From positions 21,783-85,782 of the forward strand of contig JAFWZK010000014.1 of NCBI GenBank assembly GCA_017522445.1: a stretch of DNA of 64,000 bases, written 5' to 3'. The translations under genes were made by a program, and so were the position numbers. The stretch is from Alphaproteobacteria bacterium (GTDB lineage: Bacteria > Pseudomonadota > Alphaproteobacteria > Rs-D84). The stretch's first letter is position 1; every line of letters starts with the position of its first letter. Below, one piece after another: positions 21,633 to 46,809 of the stretch. Below the pieces are notes generated by a model that was not told the DNA's origin, searched no databases, and was given only the letters and a program-made list of their open reading frames with translations.

Positions 21633-21971
21633 ATGCCTGGGTGCGGGCGCACGGGTCCCTTACAACCGTTAAAAACCTTAGAAAACAAACATTTTTCGAT
21701 TTTTAAAACTAATATTTTGCTGGTCTTGATTGACACTTTGCTTTACACACTTGATTATAACACAAATAAATTAAAAGCACAGTATTTTTTATAACCACGT
21801 AACCACATAACCAGAAATAATATTGAAATTATCCCTAAACTGCGATAGAATTAAACCAGAATCCAGTGGGAATTGGATTCGGGACTGTGATAAGTCCAGA
21901 TTACACGGTGCAAATACGCATCGTTATCTTGATATAATGGTGCGTTGCGCCGTTATGTCCCTGACCTTTGT

Positions 21972-22081
21972 GGTCGGGGGGCTGTTGGCTATACAACAGG
22001 GGAAACCTAAAGGCCACGGAATCACTTGTAATCTGATTTATCAACTCCCCGACCGTCTTATTCCCTATGGCGGTCTTTTTT
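21972..22081 (+). promoter_or_regulatory. Conserved structured 5' leader, copy A (candidate riboswitch or attenuator with terminator)
   Basis: The outer helix is GGUCGGGG(21972-79) paired with CCCCGACC(22047-54). The inner helix uggc/gcca encloses the conserved UAUACAACAGGG...AAAG. A terminator hairpin gaccg...cggtc followed by U6 lies at 22051-22081, about 20 nt before the lipoprotein start codon. Confidence 0.55.
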
Positions 22082-22101
22082 ACACTTACAAGGGGATAGA
22101 T

Positions 22102-22542
22102 ATGAAAAAAATCATTTTTATTTTGCCTATAATATTACTGTGTGCATGCCAAACTAAAATATTTTACCCATACGATGGCACAAAAACAATAACTGGCGAT
22201 GGTGGTTTTGTATGGACACATATACCCGCATCCAATTTGGGCAAGCCCATGTTTGGCAAAACGCCAAAATATAAATACGACAGTGTAGCATTTTATGAAT
22301 CTGGACTACCCGCAGGTGCAAAATGTACCTTAGTTGGTTATTATGCAGCATCTGACATAAAACAATTTGCCAGAAAGATGCTTGAAATGGATGCAAATGT
22401 CGCAACCAAATCCCCTGTTATTCTGCCTATCAGCTTTGATAATAATGCTGGCATACTCGGTGGCACACGTGCAGCCAGCGATTGGTATAACGTGGACAAC
22501 ATAAAAGTTGCCACTGGGTTTAATATTTTTGAATGTAAATAA
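22102..22542 (+). CDS. Small lipoprotein or secreted protein
   Basis: The track ORF is trimmed to MKKIIFILPIILLCAC, a lipobox-like signal, with an AGGGGA ribosome-binding site 6 nt upstream. The mature part is Gly/Tyr-rich. Confidence 0.6.
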   Translation: MKKIIFILPIILLCACQTKIFYPYDGTKTITGDGGFVWTHIPASNLGKPMFGKTPKYKYDSVAFYESGLPAGAKCTLVGYYAASDIKQFARKMLEMDANVATKSPVILPISFDNNAGILGGTRAASDWYNVDNIKVATGFNIFECK

Positions 22543-23571: not shown

Positions 23572-23764
23572 AAACATTTCAGATAATCGAAAGTTCAACA
23601 CGTGGTGAACGCAAAATAATTTACCAATTCCCAAGGTTTATATTTTCTGTATGTATTGAATATCCCGCATTATGCTGCGTTAGTCGTTTCTTTAAATCAT
23701 CGGTTTGCCCGATGTATTTTTGTTCTGGATGGGAAATGCTTTTTATAAGATAGACATAAAACAT

Positions 23765-23902
23765 TTATAAGTCCCCCTTCGTTAAAACTTCGGGCGACAC
23801 TACTTCGCCTATGCTTCTCGGCTTGTGTGGCCTGTATAAGTCCCCCTTCGTTAAAACTTCGGGCGACACTACTTCGCGATAACTGCTCCGCCTGTGTGGC
23901 CT
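23765..23902. repeat. Tandem direct repeat, 2 x 69 nt
   Basis: Units at 23765-23833 and 23834-23902 share an identical 43-nt 5' portion (tataagtcccccttcgttaaaacttcgggcgacactacttcgc) and a conserved 3' end (tgtgtggcctg). Confidence 0.8.
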
Positions 23903-23933
23903 GCCACACGAAGCGTCGCAGACGCGAAGTGTG
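23903..23933 (-). other. Interrupted palindrome abutting and overlapping the tRNA-Gln 3'-CCA
   Basis: The sequence ccacac-gaa-gcgtc-gca-gacgc-gaa-gtgtgg is a perfect two-tier hairpin. Its gtgtgg arm supplies the CCA of tRNA-Gln, and no U-run follows it. Confidence 0.6.
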
Positions 23934-24005
23934 GTTGGGGCGCACGGATTCGAACCATGATAAAGAGAACCAAAATCTCTTGTCCTACCATTAGACGACA
24001 CCCCA
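23931..24005 (-). tRNA. tRNA-Gln (anticodon UUG)
   Basis: The reverse-complement is UGGGGUG...AGAGA-UUUUGGU-UCUCU...CAUGG-UUCGAAU-CCGUG-CGCCCCA-A-CCA, with the same architecture as E. coli tRNA-Gln. Confidence 0.85.
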
Positions 24006-24283: not shown

Positions 24284-24507
24284 ATCTCGTGCAAAGAAAT
24301 ATTGATTTTAAGATGTTTTTTTTGTATCATAAACAATGAATCCACAGGTTAGTGGTTTCAGGGTCTTCAAAAACCTGTTAAACAACCGGCATAACAATCA
24401 TTGTTGTGCTGTAATCCGCACAAAAGAAATGGACGCGGATGCGTCTTTTTTTTGTGAAACACCTTTGGCACACCGTGTAATTCTTTTACATGTTTTCCAC
24501 ATTGTGT

Positions 24508-24625
24508 GTCGGGGTGCTGCCGGCTATACCACAGGGGCATGGCCCCAAAGGCCGGCGGGAATCATTGTTGTTTATGGTTTTTTGAACACCCCGACCACCG
24601 TATCTGTATGGTGGTTATTTTATTG
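24508..24625 (+). promoter_or_regulatory. Conserved structured 5' leader, copy B
   Basis: The outer helix is GUCGGGG(24508-14) paired with CCCCGAC(24589-95). The inner helix gccggc/gccggc encloses UAUACCACAGGGG, a ggggcauggcccc hairpin and AAAG. A terminator gaccacc...ggugguu followed by a U-rich run lies at 24593-24625, and the start codon is at 24640. Confidence 0.55.
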
Positions 24626-24639
24626 TCGGGGGGCGATAG

Positions 24640-25527
24640 ATGTTTCGCAGGATTGTTTTTCCTGTTATTTATATGTTGTTGTTTATTTGCACTGCATATG
24701 CACAAATGCAGTGTGATGACAGCAAGTGCTGGCATACATTAAATTTTGGTGAACATTCTGTACGTGCCTATGACAAACGTTCTACAACCCCGTCAATTTG
24801 TATTCAGGACACATCTGGTCAAATCTGGTATGTTAACATGGTTTTGGGGATGTTGCCACAAACACTGCATGCCCAGCAGGGTACAGAAATATATTCCGCA
24901 ACAGATGCACTGTATGAAATTGTTGATGGACGACTGGTATGGGCACATCCTGATATTTATTTGCAAAGCAGTGGCACCCAGTACATAGATACCGGTATTA
25001 CACCATCAGACACACTGGGGTTGCGATTTGATTATCTGCGTGAAAGTGGTACATCAGATCATGTGCTGATTGGGTCGCAATTGGAAATTGGTTCGGCCGT
25101 TCCTGAATATGCCCGCTTTACATTGGGGCAAAGCAACAGCCCATATTATGGATGGAATACGTATCGGCATACTGGGTTAAGTATCACGGAACGTTATTTG
25201 GTCAACTTGAATTACATGAACAGTCGTGAAGTTACGTACAATGGTGCGGTTGTTAAAACGGGGCTGGATACACATCTTGACAATCCGTACTCTATTTATG
25301 TATTCTGCACGAACCGCAAAGGGACGGCATCTGTTTGTTCCAAGATAAAAGTGTATTCTGCGATATTAACGGACGGCGCGGAAACGGTTATGCATTTGGT
25401 TCCTGTGCCATCAGGTCTGCAGATTGGTGATTTTACAGTTCCATCAAACGGCATGTTTGATATTGTTTCTCAGAAATTTTATGGCAATTCTGGCACGGGT
25501 GATTTTGAATTTGGCACAGATTATTAA
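24640..25527 (+). CDS. Secreted hypothetical protein
   Basis: 295 aa with a signal peptide (MFRRIVFPVIYMLLFICTAYA) and no recognisable domain. Its GGGG..GATAGatg start context is shared with the 22102 lipoprotein gene. Confidence 0.6.
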   Translation: MFRRIVFPVIYMLLFICTAYAQMQCDDSKCWHTLNFGEHSVRAYDKRSTTPSICIQDTSGQIWYVNMVLGMLPQTLHAQQGTEIYSATDALYEIVDGRLVWAHPDIYLQSSGTQYIDTGITPSDTLGLRFDYLRESGTSDHVLIGSQLEIGSAVPEYARFTLGQSNSPYYGWNTYRHTGLSITERYLVNLNYMNSREVTYNGAVVKTGLDTHLDNPYSIYVFCTNRKGTASVCSKIKVYSAILTDGAETVMHLVPVPSGLQIGDFTVPSNGMFDIVSQKFYGNSGTGDFEFGTDY

Positions 25528-39785: not shown

Positions 39786-39816
39786 AAGTTCCGCCCACAT
39801 TGGGCGGATTTTTTTA
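39786..39816. terminator. Bidirectional intrinsic terminator (ccgcccacattgggcgg)
   Basis: Hairpin flanked by A- and T-runs, lying between the convergent yidC and Stealth genes. Confidence 0.7.
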
Positions 39817-40803
39817 TATTTCGAATTGTGATTTATCTGGAAACTTTTTATTTAAAAATTCCCAGTTTTTTTGTCTGACCTTATCGGATGTATTTGCACT
39901 GTCGTTTATGCAGAACAGTGGTGGGTTTACGTGCTGCATTGCCCGTTCCGCATTTTCGCAATACAGTGGTGCGTTTTTGCATTCGTGATGATGTGTAATA
40001 TTATACAGAAAATGTCGTGCACGTTTAAAATGTCTGGCCCGTTTCAGTATTGCACGTCCGTGCACAAAGTCATACAGATTAAAAATCCATCGTTGCAGTT
40101 CCCAGTTTGTTCTGAATTTATTTCTGATTTGCATATCAAAGTGTTGCACCAGCAAAGGGTGATTTCTGCATTGTATCATCGAAGATTTGATATATGGGTC
40201 GATATTATGTGCAGGTGCCATTTGCAGTAATTTTTTTCCAAATATTTTATGCAATTTGTGTGCCGCCATCAGAATAGTTTTTCTGTAATCAGATTCAACC
40301 ATTTCCATTGCGTATCCGACATTGCTGATTTTTTTATTTTGTGTATACCATACAATTGCTCGTCCTTGTTTGTCATAAAAGAAATCTGGTGTCAGTGGTT
40401 TGTTAAAGAACATATCATCATTTGCCAACAAGAAATGTTCACTCAGGTTTGGTATATTCATGATACACATTTCAATTGCAACCGAATTGAACGTAGGCAG
40501 ACTGTCTGCCGGCATAATTTGTTCATGTGAAACAATTGTGATTTTTGGATTGTTTGTGTTCAGCCATTTTGGTATCTGGCCAAATCCTGTCACGATAAAG
40601 ATATGGTTTATCCAAGGTGCGTATTTTTCTGCACTTCGCAGGGCGAATTTTAATTCATCATTATCCCTCCATCGGGCATCCACGGTTGAGTCATGACAGA
40701 CGGCGACCTGTTTTTTTATTTTTTGCAGCCAGAAATTTTTTTCTGTTATCCAGTTTTTATCACTGCCATCAACCCACATATACACTAAATCAATTTTTTT
40801 CAT
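39814..40803 (-). CDS. Stealth-family hexose-1-phosphoryltransferase (CR1-CR3 motifs present)
   Basis: Trimmed to the internal start MKKIDLVYMWVDGSD, which is Stealth CR1. It also carries DNDELKFALRSAEKYAPWINHIFIVT (CR2) and FNSVAIEMCIMNIPNLSEHFLLANDDMFF (CR3). An AAAGGA ribosome-binding site precedes the start. The track's 5' extension would overlap leader C. Confidence 0.85.
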   Translation of the reverse strand: MKKIDLVYMWVDGSDKNWITEKNFWLQKIKKQVAVCHDSTVDARWRDNDELKFALRSAEKYAPWINHIFIVTGFGQIPKWLNTNNPKITIVSHEQIMPADSLPTFNSVAIEMCIMNIPNLSEHFLLANDDMFFNKPLTPDFFYDKQGRAIVWYTQNKKISNVGYAMEMVESDYRKTILMAAHKLHKIFGKKLLQMAPAHNIDPYIKSSMIQCRNHPLLVQHFDMQIRNKFRTNWELQRWIFNLYDFVHGRAILKRARHFKRARHFLYNITHHHECKNAPLYCENAERAMQHVNPPLFCINDSANTSDKVRQKNWEFLNKKFPDKSQFEI

Positions 40804-40828
40804 TTTTATGTCCTTTGATTTTGCCAAC

Positions 40829-40931
40829 AAAAAACCGTCAAAAATTGACGGCCGGGCATTTTCAAGGTCATAAATCCAAATGACTCTGTGGCTTTCGGGA
40901 ATCCCTGTTGTATAACCACAGATACCCGACC
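40829..40931 (-). promoter_or_regulatory. Conserved structured 5' leader, copy C
   Basis: On the minus strand the outer helix is GGUCGGG(40931-25) paired with CCCGGCC(40856-50), including one U-G wobble. The inner helix cugugg/ccacag encloses UAUACAACAGGG, a gggauuccc hairpin and AAAG. The terminator ccgucaa-uuu-uugacgg followed by U6 lies at 40851-40829, and the start codon is at 40803. Confidence 0.55.
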
Positions 40932-41057
40932 TCACATGGGGGTCAGGTTACATATCGACACGCATTGCGTGCCGTGGATTTATGGGTCTTGAAAACCCAG
41001 ACCTTTGATTATCAGGTCGATGGCATTATGCCCCAGAAAAATAAAATTTTCAACTGA

Positions 41058-41399
41058 TTAAATTGCCTTCAATTTTTTATACAGTTGCCACGGTGTTTGA
41101 ATCCATATATTTTTTAATCCGATTGCATGTTTGGCAAATTGTACACATGTCAGTGCCCTGGGGTGGGGCGGGATATCTTTGTATTTCCGGGGCAGTATTA
41201 AAAATTCCCAGCCAAATTTTTCCAGTATTTTAATATCCCGCAATTTTATTATTATTGGGACGATTTGGTTATATTTTACAAAATGCATCATGGTCGCTGT
41301 GTCTGCAGTTGGGACGATGATTGCCACGTGTTTAAAGTTTTTACACAGTAATTTCGGCAGTATCTTTGATGTTCTATTTGAAAATCCAATAATTATCAT
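41058..41399 (-). CDS. Hypothetical protein, possibly a permuted NlpC/P60 (LRAT-like) hydrolase
   Basis: 113 aa. A His-containing motif (KHVAIIV) precedes a Cys motif (TCVQFAKHA), the order seen in LRAT-like enzymes. The call is weak. Confidence 0.3.
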   Translation of the reverse strand: MIIIGFSNRTSKILPKLLCKNFKHVAIIVPTADTATMMHFVKYNQIVPIIIKLRDIKILEKFGWEFLILPRKYKDIPPHPRALTCVQFAKHAIGLKNIWIQTPWQLYKKLKAI

Positions 41400-41446: not shown

Positions 41447-41791
41447 TTATTCAATCCATCCGCGTTGTTTGGCTGCTGCCTCCAGTACGTTCATTGCGGT
41501 GTTCCATTGTGCTGCTGCACGATTTTCTGCCCAGATATATTGATGTGGTGCCCGTTTTTTATCACCAAACTTTTTCATAATTTCCAATTGTGTATCGGTC
41601 AATTTTCCGGCCAAATATAATTTGGTAATCAGTGTTTCTACATCTAATATTTCACATGGTCTGCGTGTTGGGTTTCCGCCACGGTTTATCAGTCTGTTTG
41701 CACGCATTTGTCTTGAGTATAAAAACCAGAACCATAATTGTTCAGCACTTTGAAATTTTTCATTTGATACAATTGGGTTTGTGTTTGTCAT
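41447..41791 (-). CDS. Hypothetical protein
   Basis: 114-aa basic protein directly downstream of virB10, with no motif I can recognise. Confidence 0.35.
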   Translation of the reverse strand: MTNTNPIVSNEKFQSAEQLWFWFLYSRQMRANRLINRGGNPTRRPCEILDVETLITKLYLAGKLTDTQLEIMKKFGDKKRAPHQYIWAENRAAAQWNTAMNVLEAAAKQRGWIE

Positions 41792-42106: not shown

Positions 42107-44512
42107 CTATAATATTGGCGGGAAACAGTCACCACCACTTTCTGGGCAACAGTTAAACCCTTGTTCGCCCATATCGGTGTATATTTCGCCTGGACAGCAA
42201 CCATTTGCATCTGGTGGTGTGCCACCTTCGCACAGTATTTGTTCCTCGACTTCTTCGATTGCGGTCGTTGTGCCAGTGTCGTACGGGTTTTGTACGGCAC
42301 CATCTGTATTGTATTGTACCCCCAGTATTTCCTGGTTAAACTGTTGCGAGCCAACACCCCCCAGGTCTTCTATTTTTTGCTGATACTGTTGCTGTTGATC
42401 TTCGCGATAGATATCGTATTGCAACGCCTTTTTAGACTGATAATTCAAAGAATCACAATACATTTTCAGTGTACTATACGAATGCCCCCCGCATACATTA
42501 GTCTTGCCTGCACCCTGTCCGGTGCATTCGGATTTGACACGCCACAATCCTTGTTCGTCTTCTTCGCAGTATATACCTGTTGTGAACGAACGCGATTGCC
42601 CAACCCATGAATCATCTTGTGCGGCATACAGTTCCATGTCATCTGATGTGATTGTTCGTCTTTTATCGTTGCCAAATGGGGCGACTGCACACTTTTTATT
42701 TCCGTTTGGCCCATCTTTGGTGCCACAGGTAATTTGCAAATCCACGGGTGAATAGACGGTTATCCGTGTACCTGCTGCGATTGTAAATGGTGGGACGGTA
42801 TTGTCCATCATATCGACCATTAACTTTTGTGCGACCTGGTTCCATGCGGTTATAATTTCATTTTTCGCCAGTTCCGATGAACGCATTGTGCCGCTTTGCA
42901 CCACTGTATTGTTATCCAGGTCGATTTGATTCACAAACGCATCTGCAACCGGGTTAATCAGGTTGATTGCCGCCGGCACAAATGCGGTCAGCATAGGCAT
43001 AAAGAACTGTTCCAGATAGTCTGAACTGCCCCGTCCCGGTACACCAACGCGTCCCTGGGCATCTGCCGAATATGGGTCAGAGCCTGCTGGAAAATTAAAT
43101 TCCACACCATCTGGTCGAATAAACTGATACCATTTGATTTGCATACGTCCAATTGTCTTGTATGGTCCTGGGACTTCACCTGTAACATATCCCAACATCA
43201 GTGTTCCTGTTGGAATAACAATATTGCGTCCGTCATCAGAAAAAACATTTCTGTCGACTGTTGCACGAACCGGTACACCCAACTGCAGGGCAGGGATGTC
43301 TGCACGAATATCAGACACGATTGTTGCCGGGATTGGCTTATACTGACGTAAAACAAAACTGCGGTCGTACGGTGCGGTTGAAGTCACAGTATTTTGACCT
43401 GTGGTCCCAAATATAACACCCGTTTCGGGGGCAGTTTTTATAACACTGCCAAAACCACCATCTTCGGCCCCCAGTCGCATTGCGCCGTAACTGTCTGGTA
43501 ATTCATCCAGTTCCAATTGTTGTGCCCGATTTACCACTGCGATTGCAGGTGCATTGGATAATTCTGGCAACACGCCACCGCTGATTGCGGCGAACCCGAT
43601 ATGGTCTGCATCTGTTCCGATTTTTTTACCATTGTTATCGGTAATTATACCGTTATCTGGATTGTATGTTCCCGCGGGTTTGCTGCAGTTTGTATCGGCA
43701 AACGTATGGAAAAAGTACGCCCCGCCACTGGGTTTTATCCATCCGCTTTGCCGTCCCTGATTGTCAAAGGCCGCAAACGCAAAGTCCGAACAACCATCTG
43801 GTATTGTAAATGTACGTTCTGTCACGTTTTTTGTTATCACTGGTTCGACTATGACATCTGGTGCAATAGATTCTATTTCCCGTTTTATTTCTTCTTTGAC
43901 AGGGGTGTATGCGATTGGTTCGAACTCGGGCTCTGGCTGTTCTTGGATAACAGGTTCAACAATTTTAACGGTCTGGGGTTCTGCGGGTTTTTGTTCAATC
44001 TGTGGTGCGACCGCCCCCAGTGTAATGACGATTTTTGCAGTTTTTTTCATTGCATCCGTTTCGTCGGCGTCGTGCCAGTCGACAAATACCGGCAAATTTT
44101 TTGTTGTCATAACGGCTGTTGGTGCATAGTCCAAATACACACCACATGCCAGAGTGCTGTCTATTTTTTTAATTTGTTTACACGTGTCCCGCAATGTCAG
44201 CCCCGGCGTATTTTCATGCAGTCTGACATCAACAACATTGACAGGTGCGGTTGCAGAAATTTTAACTGTTTCTGATTTTTTTTGTCCAACCAGAGTATCT
44301 GCCCAGTTTATCATATCTGGTGAAATGACCAAATCGGTCGGTATGGCATCTGTTGCATCATCATCATTGTTGTTATTATCGCCCCCAATCAACAACACCA
44401 GCAAAATCAGCACCACGGTAAATGCGGCCGCCAACAACAACCACTGTACCCGTCTGGGGGTATTTTTACGCAAATCAAGAAATTGCTGTTTTATTTTACT
44501 CATGCTCTCCAC
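42107..44512 (-). CDS. virB10: Type IV secretion protein VirB10/TrbI with a long N-terminal region and a Cys-rich C-terminal extension
   Basis: N-terminal cytoplasmic segment and TM helix (WLLLAAAFTVVLILLVLLIGG), a Pro/Glu-rich linker, and a TrbI/VirB10 core (...VPVRATVDRNVFSDDGRNIVIPTGTLMLGY...GRVGVPG...). It is 801 aa. The last ~200 aa contain about a dozen Cys. Confidence 0.8.
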   Translation of the reverse strand: MESMSKIKQQFLDLRKNTPRRVQWLLLAAAFTVVLILLVLLIGGDNNNNDDDATDAIPTDLVISPDMINWADTLVGQKKSETVKISATAPVNVVDVRLHENTPGLTLRDTCKQIKKIDSTLACGVYLDYAPTAVMTTKNLPVFVDWHDADETDAMKKTAKIVITLGAVAPQIEQKPAEPQTVKIVEPVIQEQPEPEFEPIAYTPVKEEIKREIESIAPDVIVEPVITKNVTERTFTIPDGCSDFAFAAFDNQGRQSGWIKPSGGAYFFHTFADTNCSKPAGTYNPDNGIITDNNGKKIGTDADHIGFAAISGGVLPELSNAPAIAVVNRAQQLELDELPDSYGAMRLGAEDGGFGSVIKTAPETGVIFGTTGQNTVTSTAPYDRSFVLRQYKPIPATIVSDIRADIPALQLGVPVRATVDRNVFSDDGRNIVIPTGTLMLGYVTGEVPGPYKTIGRMQIKWYQFIRPDGVEFNFPAGSDPYSADAQGRVGVPGRGSSDYLEQFFMPMLTAFVPAAINLINPVADAFVNQIDLDNNTVVQSGTMRSSELAKNEIITAWNQVAQKLMVDMMDNTVPPFTIAAGTRITVYSPVDLQITCGTKDGPNGNKKCAVAPFGNDKRRTITSDDMELYAAQDDSWVGQSRSFTTGIYCEEDEQGLWRVKSECTGQGAGKTNVCGGHSYSTLKMYCDSLNYQSKKALQYDIYREDQQQQYQQKIEDLGGVGSQQFNQEILGVQYNTDGAVQNPYDTGTTTAIEEVEEQILCEGGTPPDANGCCPGEIYTDMGEQGFNCCPESGGDCFPPIL

Positions 44513-44536
44513 ACCCGTGTTATATTGTGTATAGAA

Positions 44537-46060
44537 TTATTGCATCCGAACAACACTGCAGCTGGTTCCGCTGAATCTCAGCAATTTATCACACAGTGTT
44601 TGTGCCGTGTCAATATCTGCGAATGGTCCGATTCTTAACCGGTATTGCCGTGCCGTCGACGATGTAGCCCCCAGTTCGCCAACCCCCTGTTCATCTACTG
44701 CAAAGAACACCATATCTTTATATGGGGTTAATAATCCTTGTCCGTCATCGCCGCTGAATTTGGCCATCAGTGTATTCCAGTATTCGTCCAGTGCGGCCAC
44801 AGATGTATCAGATTTCAGTTCCAACGCAACCCCAACCTGGTTACTGGCGATTAATGGTATGTTTGACTGTGGCAGATATGCCCCGGCTGTGTTTCGTTGC
44901 TGTGGCAGCATATTTACCACACTGCCCGACGACTGTGGCATGACCTGTGGAACTGTGAACCCGGCTGGCACATAGTATCCGGCCCCGGTTGTTGGATTAA
45001 CTGTCTGTGTATTTCCAACAAACATTGGTGTTCCGGTATAGTTTGTACCCATGCTCATTGCGGCCATGCTGTCCGTATATGCGATGTTGTTCAGTGATTG
45101 TCCCGACAGCATGCTTTGTGCAACATTTGCCTCGGCCAGTGCCATTACCGATGCGGTATCTGCGATTAAGAATGGTTTTTCACGTTTTTTGATACATACA
45201 ATTCTTTGTCCGCTGCGTAATACCATATCACCCACCGCCTCGACAATCAGCAGTCGTCCATCTTCGCCATCTGTGCGGAATCCAACGGGCGATTCACCAC
45301 CTTCGACCAACAGTGACACGACCGGTCGCTGTGTCATAGAAATAACCTTGTCGCCAAAGTCGATATATGTAAATATTCTGTCCCGCCATACGCGTTCTGG
45401 GGCGATGACATAGTCATCTGGGTTTGGTACAAAGATGTCCAAATCGAATCTGAATTCAGACGGGTCGATTTTCATTGACTTTATCCATCCATAGTCTTCG
45501 CCATCGGCACCAACGACACTGGTTGCAGGTGCGGCTTTTTTAAATATAGAACTGGCCCCACCTGATGTTGTGGTGTTTCCCATCACGGGCAGTGTGCCAT
45601 TTCCGTCCAGCATAATATCCACCTGCGAGTATGTGATTTCGCTGGAATTAGATGGTTCACTGCGTAAATAGAAAATGTATTTGTTCCCAGATTTTCCCGT
45701 CACAATCATATTGGTATCTGACCCCTGGTTATCACCTGCCGGGGAAATAAACATTGTACGTTCTCCCTGGGTTGCGTCTATGGTAAACAATCCCTGATTT
45801 CCAATGACCGCATCGGCAATTTGTTCACCGTTGGGCAGTGTAATCATGGTTACCATACCGTTTCTCAGTTTGACTGGCAGAACGGCCCCCGCCGACCATG
45901 TCAGCTGGGCATAACCTGGTTTTGTACTGCCGGCGGCCATATTAGCGGTTGGATTATCCCATGCATTTTGCACCCCATACACCTCGGCATAGGCGGGCAG
46001 ACTTAAAATCCCGACCAAACAGAACACGGATATATTTAACTTTGATAATTTTGCCAGCAT
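44537..46060 (-). CDS. virB9: Type IV secretion protein VirB9/TrbG with a C-terminal SPOR-like extension
   Basis: Signal peptide and VirB9 N- and C-domains (...RDRIFTYIDFGDKV...). It is 507 aa. An extra ~220 aa end in QYRLRIGPFADIDTAQTLCDKLLRFSGTSCSVVRM, which reads as a SPOR fold. Confidence 0.75.
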   Translation of the reverse strand: MLAKLSKLNISVFCLVGILSLPAYAEVYGVQNAWDNPTANMAAGSTKPGYAQLTWSAGAVLPVKLRNGMVTMITLPNGEQIADAVIGNQGLFTIDATQGERTMFISPAGDNQGSDTNMIVTGKSGNKYIFYLRSEPSNSSEITYSQVDIMLDGNGTLPVMGNTTTSGGASSIFKKAAPATSVVGADGEDYGWIKSMKIDPSEFRFDLDIFVPNPDDYVIAPERVWRDRIFTYIDFGDKVISMTQRPVVSLLVEGGESPVGFRTDGEDGRLLIVEAVGDMVLRSGQRIVCIKKREKPFLIADTASVMALAEANVAQSMLSGQSLNNIAYTDSMAAMSMGTNYTGTPMFVGNTQTVNPTTGAGYYVPAGFTVPQVMPQSSGSVVNMLPQQRNTAGAYLPQSNIPLIASNQVGVALELKSDTSVAALDEYWNTLMAKFSGDDGQGLLTPYKDMVFFAVDEQGVGELGATSSTARQYRLRIGPFADIDTAQTLCDKLLRFSGTSCSVVRMQ

Positions 46061-46101
46061 TGTACCATTCCTTCCGTTTTTTTTATTTATTTCATATCAT
46101 T

Positions 46102-46809
46102 TTATTCAGCCGCCAAAAATCCAGTATTTAACGGATCGCCATCGCCTTCGACGACTGTGTATTCCTGAACCCGCAGTCCCAATGGATTTTCAATTCTGTC
46201 GGTCCATTTTATTTGTGGGGACGGGTCAGTGGTTAACTTTATTTTGATTGTATAATCTTTTGGCCAGGTTCGTCCAGTATTATCTGCACAAAAGTATCTA
46301 AATTTTACCTGATACCTGTCTTCGCTGGCCAGATACAGTGGTGCACCTTCAAACACAACTGGACATGTAAAGTCAAAATCTGGCATTTCGCTCATCAGTG
46401 CGGTGAACATGGTCGTGTTTGCAAAGTCTGCATACACTTGGTCGGTTGACATGATGCGAACTTCGCCATTTTCGCTGTTCCATGTTTTGTGCATTGCTGT
46501 TGCGTTTGTAAAAACCTCGTTTCTCAGTCTGACGTATTCACGCACGAATGCACGTTTATACCGGTCCAGATTTGCATCACGTGGTTGCAGTTCGACCAGT
46601 TTTACATCTTGGTCGGCCCGCACAGTTGTTGTCAGAAAGAATATCTGGGGTTTATTCAGCGGGAACATTTTCGCCAGCGTTATGACTAAAACCCCCAACA
46701 CTACCAGTGCGGTTGCCATAACGAACGTCATCATTCTTGATATTAAAACTGGCGGTTCCAGGCGGTTTTTCACGCAATCTCTCCCTTTGATTAAAATGAT
46801 TGTAGACAA
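46102..46809 (-). CDS. virB8: Type IV secretion protein VirB8
   Basis: 235 aa with an N-terminal TM helix, a periplasmic NTF2-like domain and the conserved NPLG motif. Confidence 0.75.
   Translation of the reverse strand: MSTIILIKGRDCVKNRLEPPVLISRMMTFVMATALVVLGVLVITLAKMFPLNKPQIFFLTTTVRADQDVKLVELQPRDANLDRYKRAFVREYVRLRNEVFTNATAMHKTWNSENGEVRIMSTDQVYADFANTTMFTALMSEMPDFDFTCPVVFEGAPLYLASEDRYQVKFRYFCADNTGRTWPKDYTIKIKLTTDPSPQIKWTDRIENPLGLRVQEYTVVEGDGDPLNTGFLAAE

Follow-up and report, generated by a model that had tools for sequence, protein, structure and literature searches.

A putative default-off transcription attenuator related to sRNA-Xcc1 ahead of a Stealth-family gene in an alphaproteobacterial chromosome

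How is a gene expressed when an intrinsic terminator ends only 25 nucleotides (nt) before its start codon? This question is raised by a locus in a 64,000-nt stretch of DNA from an alphaproteobacterium (assembly GCA_017522445.1, contig JAFWZK010000014.1, positions 21,783 to 85,782), which is called the window here and whose coordinates are used throughout. The gene belongs to the Stealth family, and a structured leader, copy C, read on the minus strand, lies in the interval considered here, from the preceding open reading frame (ORF) at 41058-41399 to the Stealth start codon ATG (40803). A preliminary description of copy C had proposed that Stealth depends on read-through of the terminator under the control of an alternative RNA helix. 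On the evidence assembled below, copy C is probably a cis-acting transcription attenuator module that is off by default.

The end of the leader and the gene behind it comprise three features:
40829 to 40851, minus strand: intrinsic terminator, CCGUCAA-UUU-UUGACGG followed by U6 (sequence reading and terminator scan)
40811 to 40815, minus strand: Shine-Dalgarno sequence AAGGA, 7 nt 5' of the ATG (sequence reading)
39814 to 40803, minus strand: Stealth-family gene of 329 amino acids (aa), downstream of copy C (Pfam)

The terminator is of the intrinsic (Rho-independent) type, with a perfect stem of 7 base pairs (bp), or 9 bp with G-U pairs, a 3-nt loop and a U6 tract; in the DNA, CCGTCAA (40851-40845), a TTT loop, TTGACGG (40841-40835) and TTTTTT (40834-40829) follow one another on the minus strand. 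The perfect hairpin and its U-tract had been described before, and both the letters and the terminator scan bear them out. The same scan reports four terminator-like sites between 40700 and 41500, that of copy C included, where 1.1 would be expected. The spacing had been given as about 25 nt to the ribosome-binding site (RBS). The figure is right, but it runs from the end of the U-tract to the ATG, while AAGGA already follows after 13 nt. A gap of 25 nt is too small for a -35/-10 pair and a 5' untranslated region, and the promoter scan finds no sigma70-like site on the minus strand between 40931 and 40803. A hidden promoter in the leader or the gap was also considered and rejected: the scan is negative there, and the TTGACG in the 3' strand of the terminator has, by eye, no usable -10 at 16-18 nt. 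Since no promoter fits between the terminator and the start codon, the Stealth mRNA must arise by read-through. The requirement for read-through, as claimed in the preliminary description, is well supported by the presence of the terminator, by the absence of promoter-capable sequence before the start codon and by the conservation of this arrangement in relatives.

The assignment of the gene itself rests on conserved regions 1 and 2 of the four (CR1 to CR4) that mark the Stealth family. In Pfam, CR2 (3.4e-41) and CR1 (2.8e-8) are both above threshold, CR4 (6.7e-5, 23.2 bits) stays under its cut-off of 27.4, and CR3 has no match at E <=1e-3 in a search of the 329-aa protein. CR1 starts at residue 3, and 40803 is therefore the true start of Stealth. 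There are 1308 homologues at E <=1e-20, the nearest being 80% identical; the named matches come from metagenome-assembled genomes (MAGs) of Alphaproteobacteria and Rickettsiales.

It had further been stated that the locus leaves no room for a separate promoter. This is true of the gap between terminator and ATG, but the leader carries a promoter of its own:
41025 to 41053, minus strand: sigma70-like promoter TTGAAA-17-CATAAT (promoter scan, 10 of 12 matches)

This promoter begins 4 nt past the stop codon of the ORF at 41058-41399, and transcription is predicted to start near 41018. The interval first reported, 40829-40931, is exactly the Rfam-like core plus the terminator; the module as a whole consists of promoter, leader of about 215 nt, terminator, RBS and gene, and reaches 5' beyond 40931 to about 41018.

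To which family does the core belong? An Rfam scan by E-value gives three matches in the window, all to one family, sRNA-Xcc1 (RF02221): copy A at 21972-22062 on the plus strand (41.5 bits), copy B at 24508-24603 on the plus strand (28.9 bits) and copy C at 40842-40931 on the minus strand (32.8 bits). The copies A and B that the name of copy C implied are thus present. Rfam at its curated thresholds reports tRNAs alone, both in the window and in 18 related loci. A search with nhmmer recovers one of them, copy A (21948-22081, E 9e-8), and ungapped direct-repeat detection does not find the other copies in the window at the DNA level.

A covariance model was built from the three window copies, and relatives were gathered by a pattern scan of species-representative genomes and by model searches over the retrieved loci; the counts given here are of the copies collected. 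At the copy threshold of E <1e-9 there are at least 61 copies, most of them in MAGs from animal or human gut labelled Candidatus Enterousia, Alphaproteobacteria or Rickettsiales. A weaker group, at 27-44 bits with the three-copy model, is found in Sphingomonas, Rhodobacterales and Rhizobiales. A promoter with at least 9 of 12 matches stands at a fixed distance from the leader 5' strand in 76% of 58 relatives and in 9% of control windows, and the distance from the end of the -10 element to the first conserved leader segment is near-constant in these relatives. Since the leader has its own positionally conserved promoter, Stealth would be independent of transcription from the upstream ORFs or the virB genes and, as far as the sequence indicates, need not be co-transcribed with these ORFs or with virB8-10.

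The Rfam model describes a three-way junction, here called Fold X, which in copy C is followed by the terminator and is made up as follows:
40922 to 40931, minus strand: P1 5' strand GGUCGGGUAU (Rfam alignment)
40886 to 40921, minus strand: P2 helix with the near-invariant internal loop UAUACAAC...AAAG and the apical hairpin GGG-AUU-CCC (Rfam alignment)
40866 to 40884, minus strand: P3 hairpin, GUCAU, loop UUGGAUUU and AUGAC (Rfam alignment), of which the loop and 3' strand are also a target of the 5' long-range strand described below
40850 to 40859, minus strand: P1 3' strand AUGCCCGGCC, whose last two bases, CC (40851-40850), are the first two of the terminator stem

In the alignment of 61 copies, 95.3% of the cells of Fold X are in a standard pair and 22 of the 30 pairs have changed on both sides. 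P1 is paired in 99%, its three inner pairs showing 18, 16 and 9 both-side changes; such changes are also present in all eight pairs of P2, in all three of its apical pairs and in four of the five pairs of P3. All four terminator pairs of the covariance model covary as well. None of 500 shuffles attains the observed values, and registers that were slid along the alignment are 32-51% paired. The helices are rich in G-U pairs (two P3 pairs, for example, have 29 and 22 of them), which argues for structure in the RNA of this strand. The bases common to the P1 3' strand and the terminator stem are ACC in most relatives and CC in copy C. The 3' strand of the terminator ends in GGU, and the P1 5' strand begins with the same GGU.

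The minimum-energy fold of all three full leaders is another one, Fold Y, with z-scores against shuffles of -5.1, -6.8 and -7.4. It involves the following parts of the leader 5' of the core:
40970 to 41004, minus strand: 5' long-range strand with segments a (GGUCUGGG), b (UUUCAAG) and c (CAUAAAUCCA) (duplex energy; covariation)
40957 to 40972, minus strand: small hairpin CACGC-AAU-GCGUG in the variable mid-leader (sequence reading; part of the minimum-energy fold)
40941 to 40947, minus strand: anti-P1 strand CCUGACC, forming a local hairpin with the P1 5' strand GGUCGGG (part of the minimum-energy fold)

The 5' strand finds its partners at 40878-40850, in J3/1, the loop and 3' strand of P3 and the 3' strand of P1. 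In copy C this long-range duplex has an energy of -32.2 kcal/mol and is part of the minimum-energy fold. Throughout the family, segment a is GGUUCGGGG-like, segment b has 4-7 variable bases and segment c 8-10 hypervariable ones; on its own, the 5' strand forms a small covarying hairpin (GGGU/ACCC in copy C) with b in the loop. The mid-leader of relatives holds one or two hairpins, often with CGUUAU or CGUAAUC after them, and an anti-P1 strand, CCC(U/C)GAC(C), lies 3-10 nt 5' of P1 in nearly all copies.

Both parts of Fold Y stand out from controls. The long-range duplex has a mean energy of -17.3 kcal/mol against -10.0 in controls and the anti-P1 duplex one of -13.7 against -6.0, and for each of them 91% of the copies are at or below the 5th percentile of their own controls. 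When partners were swapped between copies, the own loop was among the top three in 33 of 58. Segment c found its best partner in its own P3 loop in 36 of 58 copies and had it among the top five in 54, and for segment b, J3/1 ranked among the top five partners in 41 of 58. Loop columns 85-92 and J3/1 columns 105-109 show each of the four kinds of Watson-Crick pair, and at 19 target columns of the long-range helix both members of the pair have changed with Watson-Crick pairing kept.

P2 is present in either fold. Otherwise Folds X and Y draw on the same strands (both strands of P1, the loop and 3' strand of P3, and J3/1) and are therefore mutually exclusive. There are thus two mutually exclusive folds, both backed by covariation, and two such folds, each under selection, are what is expected of an attenuator or expression platform. 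A pseudoknot that would leave the junction intact was judged unlikely on geometric grounds: the pairing spans nearly the whole P3 loop (8-10 bp), with no linker into the P3 3' strand and J3/1. The alternative helix of the preliminary description is accordingly present in the sense that alternative helices exist and covary, but it is not one helix; it has become two global folds that include about 90 nt 5' of the reported start.

How could these folds act on the terminator? In partition-function models of 58 copies, the full leader was compared with the junction core plus terminator. In the full leader, the modelled probability of the Rfam P1 is about 0, and the bottom terminator pairs exceed 0.5 in 95% of the copies, with a mean of 0.77. 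In the core plus terminator, P1 rises to a probability of 0.94, and the mean for the bottom terminator pairs drops to 0.34. Going from the full leader to the core, the modelled bottom-pair probability changes from 0.70 to 0.22 in copy C, from 0.81 to 0.07 in copy A and from 0.85 to 0.67 in copy B. These models suggest that the ground state is Fold Y with a complete terminator ('off'), and that Fold X weakens closure of the terminator pairs next to the U-tract. The claim that an alternative helix controls read-through gains support from this comparison, with the restriction that the overlap is of 2-3 nt (ACC) and that the effect is a modelled one.

The anatomy of the module, its conservation and position relative to genes, and the covariation of both folds can be read directly from the alignments and loci. 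From the modelling we infer that termination would be the regulated step and that Fold X would be the 'on' fold. In the mechanism that we propose, the promoter would fire and the leader would settle into Fold Y, in which the P1 5' strand would be held by the anti-P1 strand and the terminator would close. Some input would shift Fold Y to Fold X; P1 of Fold X would then hold ACC (CC in copy C) at the base of the terminator stem beside the U-tract, and termination would be weakened. Read-through would then reach Stealth and the genes behind the other copies, the module being off by default. The trigger could be a small molecule or a protein. The likeliest candidate sites of contact for a small molecule or an RNA-binding protein seem to be the near-invariant UAUACAAC/AAAG loop in P2, whose conservation would fit a binding pocket, and the small hairpins (then CGUUAU) by the anti-P1 strand.

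Several points weigh against this mechanism. The overlap between P1 and the terminator amounts to 2-3 nt only, the competing strands share the sequence GGU, and the difference in energy is small. Nor is the ACC free in Fold Y, in which it pairs with segment a, and the difference between the folds rests on nearest-neighbour modelling; in copy B the modelled effect is almost nil (0.85 vs 0.67). Moreover, the Fold X alignment was fitted to the structure of Fold X, and the pairs of Fold Y were picked by an energy-minimising program, objections that the controls (slid, shuffled and swapped-partner) answer only in part. Finally, terminated leaders could act in trans also, given the founding RNA of about 88 nt (PMC2996969).

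This last point leads to the question whether the element belongs to the gene behind it at all. It could be imagined that copy C is a stand-alone gene for a trans-acting small RNA (sRNA), as Rfam classes sRNA-Xcc1, which merely lies upstream of Stealth, and that Stealth is expressed by unregulated leakage through the terminator. The cores do match RF02221, which Rfam types as 'Gene; sRNA', and every copy has a promoter and a terminator. The founding member of sRNA-Xcc1 was detected as an independent RNA of about 88 nt; it gave a distinct band of about 100 nt, and its ends were mapped (PMC2996969). Transcripts of the Xylella homologues have been detected as well (PMC12189769). The positions of the copies point the other way. 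An ORF of at least 45 codons starts at most 45 nt downstream in 52 of 58 copies, compared with 28% at random positions, and a stricter definition (ATG, RBS and at least 80 codons) is satisfied by 41 of 58, compared with 4%. The downstream gene is always on the same strand as the leader, and with RBS and start codon within 45 nt of the terminator in these 52 copies, the downstream genes are left without another promoter. In addition, the P3 loop and segment c are hypervariable and yet matched within each copy, which fits an intramolecular pairing and not a shared target in trans. We therefore regard a trans-acting sRNA gene as unlikely, the more so as the leader accompanies Stealth over three genomic contexts.

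These contexts are found among eight loci, six of which have the leader before Stealth, down to 60% protein identity (loci other than the window are given L numbers):
the window, L001 and L129: Stealth with leader, syntenic, the latter two at 77% and 76% identity
L005 and L130: Stealth with leader, at 73% and 66% identity, adjoining a penicillin-binding protein gene and recR
L131: Stealth with leader, at 60% identity, adjoining acyltransferase genes, with a GT8 gene next

The leader is absent at L002-L004 (64%), where Stealth stands directly behind a GT8 gene, and at L132 (56%), so the association is frequent and not universal. As the leader is kept with Stealth across three contexts, it travels with the gene and not with the virB side.

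A link between this switch and a phospho-sugar surface polymer had been suggested. The leader does precede Stealth, but it precedes secreted or outer-membrane proteins and GT2 genes as well. Pfam families of 48 downstream proteins are as follows, the rest of the 48 having no Pfam family match:
GT2 glycosyltransferases: 5
Stealth: 3
outer-membrane beta-barrel, Opacity or surface antigen: 3
Chlamydia PMP repeat protein: 1
RgpF: 1
PLD-like: 1
Resolvase: 1

By eye, most of the downstream proteins have a signal peptide or lipobox, and many are cysteine-rich. The other two modules of the window are as follows:
21823 to 22101, plus strand: copy A module, with promoter TTGAAA-17-TAGAAT at 21823-21851, leader from about 21859, core at 21972-22062 and terminator end at about 22079
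24302 to 24639, plus strand: copy B module, with promoter TTGATT-17-TATCAT at 24302-24330, leader, core at 24508-24603 and terminator at 24593-24616

The same-strand gene directly after copy A encodes a small lipoprotein (22102-22542) and that after copy B a secreted protein of 295 aa (24640-25527). Over 252 nt, copy A's leader (21859-22110) shares 96% identity with positions 758-1009 of L030, from a Candidatus Enterousia MAG. The identity begins at 21859, the predicted transcription start, and ends shortly after the start codon. Beyond these limits the flanking sequences show no alignment, and each of the two leaders has a different gene behind it (a 146-aa lipoprotein and a 115-aa protein). 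This suggests that the gene behind a conserved leader was swapped. Copy B has an extra terminator-like hairpin, GGACGCGGATGCGTC followed by T8, in its variable mid-leader (24431-24446), and a hairpin of the same sequence is found at the same place in several relatives (L072, L086, L015, L106, L079 and L043).

How, then, is the attenuator-like module to be reconciled with a family that is known as an sRNA? sRNA-Xcc1 was first described in Xanthomonas campestris. The curated gathering threshold of RF02221 is 53 bits, and neither the three window copies (28.9-41.5 bits) nor any of 18 related alphaproteobacterial loci reach it. Full-length matches of 33-42 bits are nevertheless present in seven of eight rescanned alphaproteobacterial loci, and all matches, in the three window copies and the seven others, cover model positions 1-87 of 87. 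The same tool gives 68.8-72.6 bits for members above the threshold, which come from Neisseria, Aeromonas and a Pseudomonas plasmid. Full-length scores below the threshold indicate that the alphaproteobacterial elements, as judged from their sequences, are a consistent divergent branch of the sRNA-Xcc1 family. The window copies have the same three-way junction, with P1, P2 carrying the AUACAA internal loop and an apical hairpin, and P3.

The family RNA has about 88 nt and is treated as trans-acting in Rfam and the literature, whereas the element described here is a unit of about 215 nt with promoter, 5' competing strand, anti-P1 hairpin and terminator. Members of the Rfam family have also been tied to integrons, transposons and plasmids (10.1101/2025.06.18.660453; PMC12189769), in contrast to the window copies, which stand before surface-related genes, and not before mobile-element cargo, among housekeeping genes of the chromosome. 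The window is bacterial chromosomal DNA of 43% G+C that holds nusG, rplKAJL, rpoBC, ribosomal protein genes, tRNAs, yidC and lspA, and no integron, transposon, plasmid or phage setting is found for copy C. A phage origin, prompted by scattered tRNAs and many terminators, was rejected: the phage collection yields no match, and the genes are those of a chromosome.

Two papers that treat RF02221 as an sRNA remark merely on a position upstream of a gene, namely ahead of symE in integrons of Xanthomonas (10.1101/2025.06.18.660453) and ahead of an ORF6N gene in the APSE phage (10.1101/2020.03.17.996009). In a literature search that did not include the family-defining paper of 2011, we found no reinterpretation of the sRNA-Xcc1 family as an attenuator and no description of the extended unit of promoter, 5' strand, anti-P1, junction and terminator before chromosomal surface genes.

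The above-threshold members share two traits with the window copies: they too lie just upstream of genes, for example a BRO-family gene on a P. aeruginosa plasmid, and they too carry upstream complements to the P3 loop and J3/1. On this plasmid (NZ_CP093017.1; L127, 698-860), AAGCAG and CTAAGAAAC lie upstream as complements of the P3 loop and J3/1, and the BRO-family gene that follows has an RBS region, CCAAGCAGAGG, whose complement is found in the P3 5' strand and loop. The members L126, L127 and L128 (68.8-72.6 bits) have the same extra features, which the Rfam model leaves out, and judged from them the whole RF02221 family may be cis-regulatory.

Elements of the weaker group (L006, L020, L022, L026, L075, L092 and others, from Sphingomonas, Rhodobacterales and Rhizobiales) are Xcc1-like and sub-threshold. 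They have an anti-P1 hairpin, CCUUGACC-CUAU-GGUCGGGG, and their pairing between upstream strand and P3 loop covaries. There is no terminator; a downstream GAUCGGGG overlaps the RBS and can pair with the P1 3' strand CCCCGAUC. Among the genes after these elements are a GIY-YIG-like ORF and a conserved one of about 97 aa (MTMRVPVELDP...). A second related type of leader is found in the same gut MAGs (L015 7827-7929, L074 600-702, L106 752-867 and L016 1225-1332), with a different P1 (GGUUGGAGG...CCUCCAACC), with CUCCAAC as anti-strand upstream and with a terminator; the next gene encodes a secreted or membrane protein in at least three of the four loci. From these sequences, it may be a sibling class.

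The arrangement in these Alphaproteobacteria, in which P1 3' strand and RBS can pair and no terminator is present, gives weight to another explanation, namely that the leader mainly controls translation or mRNA stability, by exposing or hiding the RBS or protecting the 5' end, and that the terminator is a constant partial brake. In copies A (AAGGGGA, 22086-22101) and B (GGGGGG, 24627-24639), the G-rich RBS region has its complement in the CCCC of the C-rich P1 3' strand; the above-threshold plasmid member has the complementarity between its RBS region and P3 just mentioned, and in it, as in those other Alphaproteobacteria, the expression platform seems to hide the RBS in place of forming a terminator; and the effect on the terminator of copy B is weak in the model. 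As the main function of the leader this is nevertheless quite unlikely, since the AAGGA of copy C has no convincing complement in the leader, in P1 3' or elsewhere, and all 61 gut-type copies retain the covarying hairpin and U-tract. A translational layer alongside the control of termination is plausible from the sequences; in copies A and B, the complementarity between RBS and P1 3' strand could add such control on top of termination. That the copies are repeats at the level of DNA (a recombination site or miniature mobile element, for instance) without a function as RNA is highly improbable: several copies per genome, the ties of the Rfam family to integrons, transposons and plasmids and the 96% identity of the copy A leader to one in another genome with different flanks would suit it, but the orientation to the downstream gene is strictly fixed, promoter, terminator and RBS are in fixed register, the plentiful G-U pairs would be A-C mismatches on the opposite strand, and direct-repeat detection found no copies at the DNA level.

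The reading of copy C as a default-off attenuator also finds parallels in known systems, and the logic of the leader resembles that of 'on' riboswitches and four-segment attenuators. In 'on' riboswitches such as the pbuE/ydhL adenine riboswitch, a three-way junction is closed by a P1 one of whose strands is also part of the intrinsic terminator downstream, and expression is off by default. Likewise, P1 of the window junction shares a strand with the terminator and, in the models, the junction favours read-through. Unlike in purine riboswitches, the overlap in the window leader is of 2-3 nt, and the anti-P1 and long 5' strands would additionally stabilise the off state; to our knowledge, the known purine riboswitches have neither an anti-P1 strand nor a long 5' competing strand. 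In attenuators of the trp type, four segments pair as 1:2 and 3:4 or as 2:3, and the PyrR and BglG/SacY leaders are examples of protein-dependent antitermination. In the window leader, helices exclude one another by the same logic: the anti-P1 strand with the P1 5' strand would serve as anti-antiterminator and P1 as antiterminator, with the terminator as the third element. It differs from the trp type by being a family without a leader peptide: a small ORF with ATG and RBS upstream of P1 is found in just one of 58 leaders, and attenuation by a leader peptide was rejected for this reason.

Leader-based control of surface-polysaccharide operons is known from ops/JUMPStart with RfaH, from EAR RNA, from LoaP and from UpxY of Bacteroides. 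As in these systems, genes for surface glycans and proteins are found here under a long 5' leader that would act at elongation or termination. Unlike there, the targets are mostly single genes and not long operons, and the window lacks an ops element. A leader of the ops/RfaH type was considered and rejected, the ops element GGCGGTAG having no match anywhere in the window.

More tentatively, it is possible, though we regard it as doubtful at present, that the sRNA-Xcc1 superfamily is a widespread cis-acting two-fold RNA switch, either an orphan riboswitch or a protein-responsive element, whose unit includes the 5' strand and the anti-P1 hairpin. Multiplication of the switch in uncultured Alphaproteobacteria of the gut would have given rise to a regulon by which surface proteins, outer-membrane proteins and surface-glycan enzymes, Stealth among them, are turned on together by one signal. 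If the attenuator reading is right, RF02221, a family that has carried the annotation of a small regulatory RNA for 15 years, would include a cis-acting two-fold attenuator branch with an extended architecture, and its matches upstream of genes would need another interpretation. There would be a candidate cell-surface regulon in a little-known, uncultured group of gut Alphaproteobacteria, Candidatus Enterousia and relatives, spanning adhesin-like and outer-membrane proteins, GT2 glycosyltransferases and Stealth-type sugar-phosphate transferases. The family would also offer a well-aligned orphan RNA switch, with strong covariation for both states, that is ready for a hunt for ligands or proteins. 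Stealth itself would be gated after the start of transcription, independently of the neighbouring type IV secretion genes.

Copy C has small ORFs after virB8-10 on one side and yidC and lspA on the other. The type IV secretion genes lie just upstream of the Stealth module at 42107-46734 on the minus strand and comprise virB8, virB9 (with a CagX domain and a C-terminal SPOR domain) and virB10 (TrbI). The two small ORFs that follow them, at 41447-41791 and 41058-41399, have no Pfam match, and the same layout is found in L001 and L129. Elsewhere in the window, two tandem 69-nt repeats, 88% identical, adjoin a tRNA-Gln on the minus strand (23766-23903, 23932-24005 and 23621-23764), and a short ORF beside them resembles, by eye, a truncated GIY-YIG nuclease.

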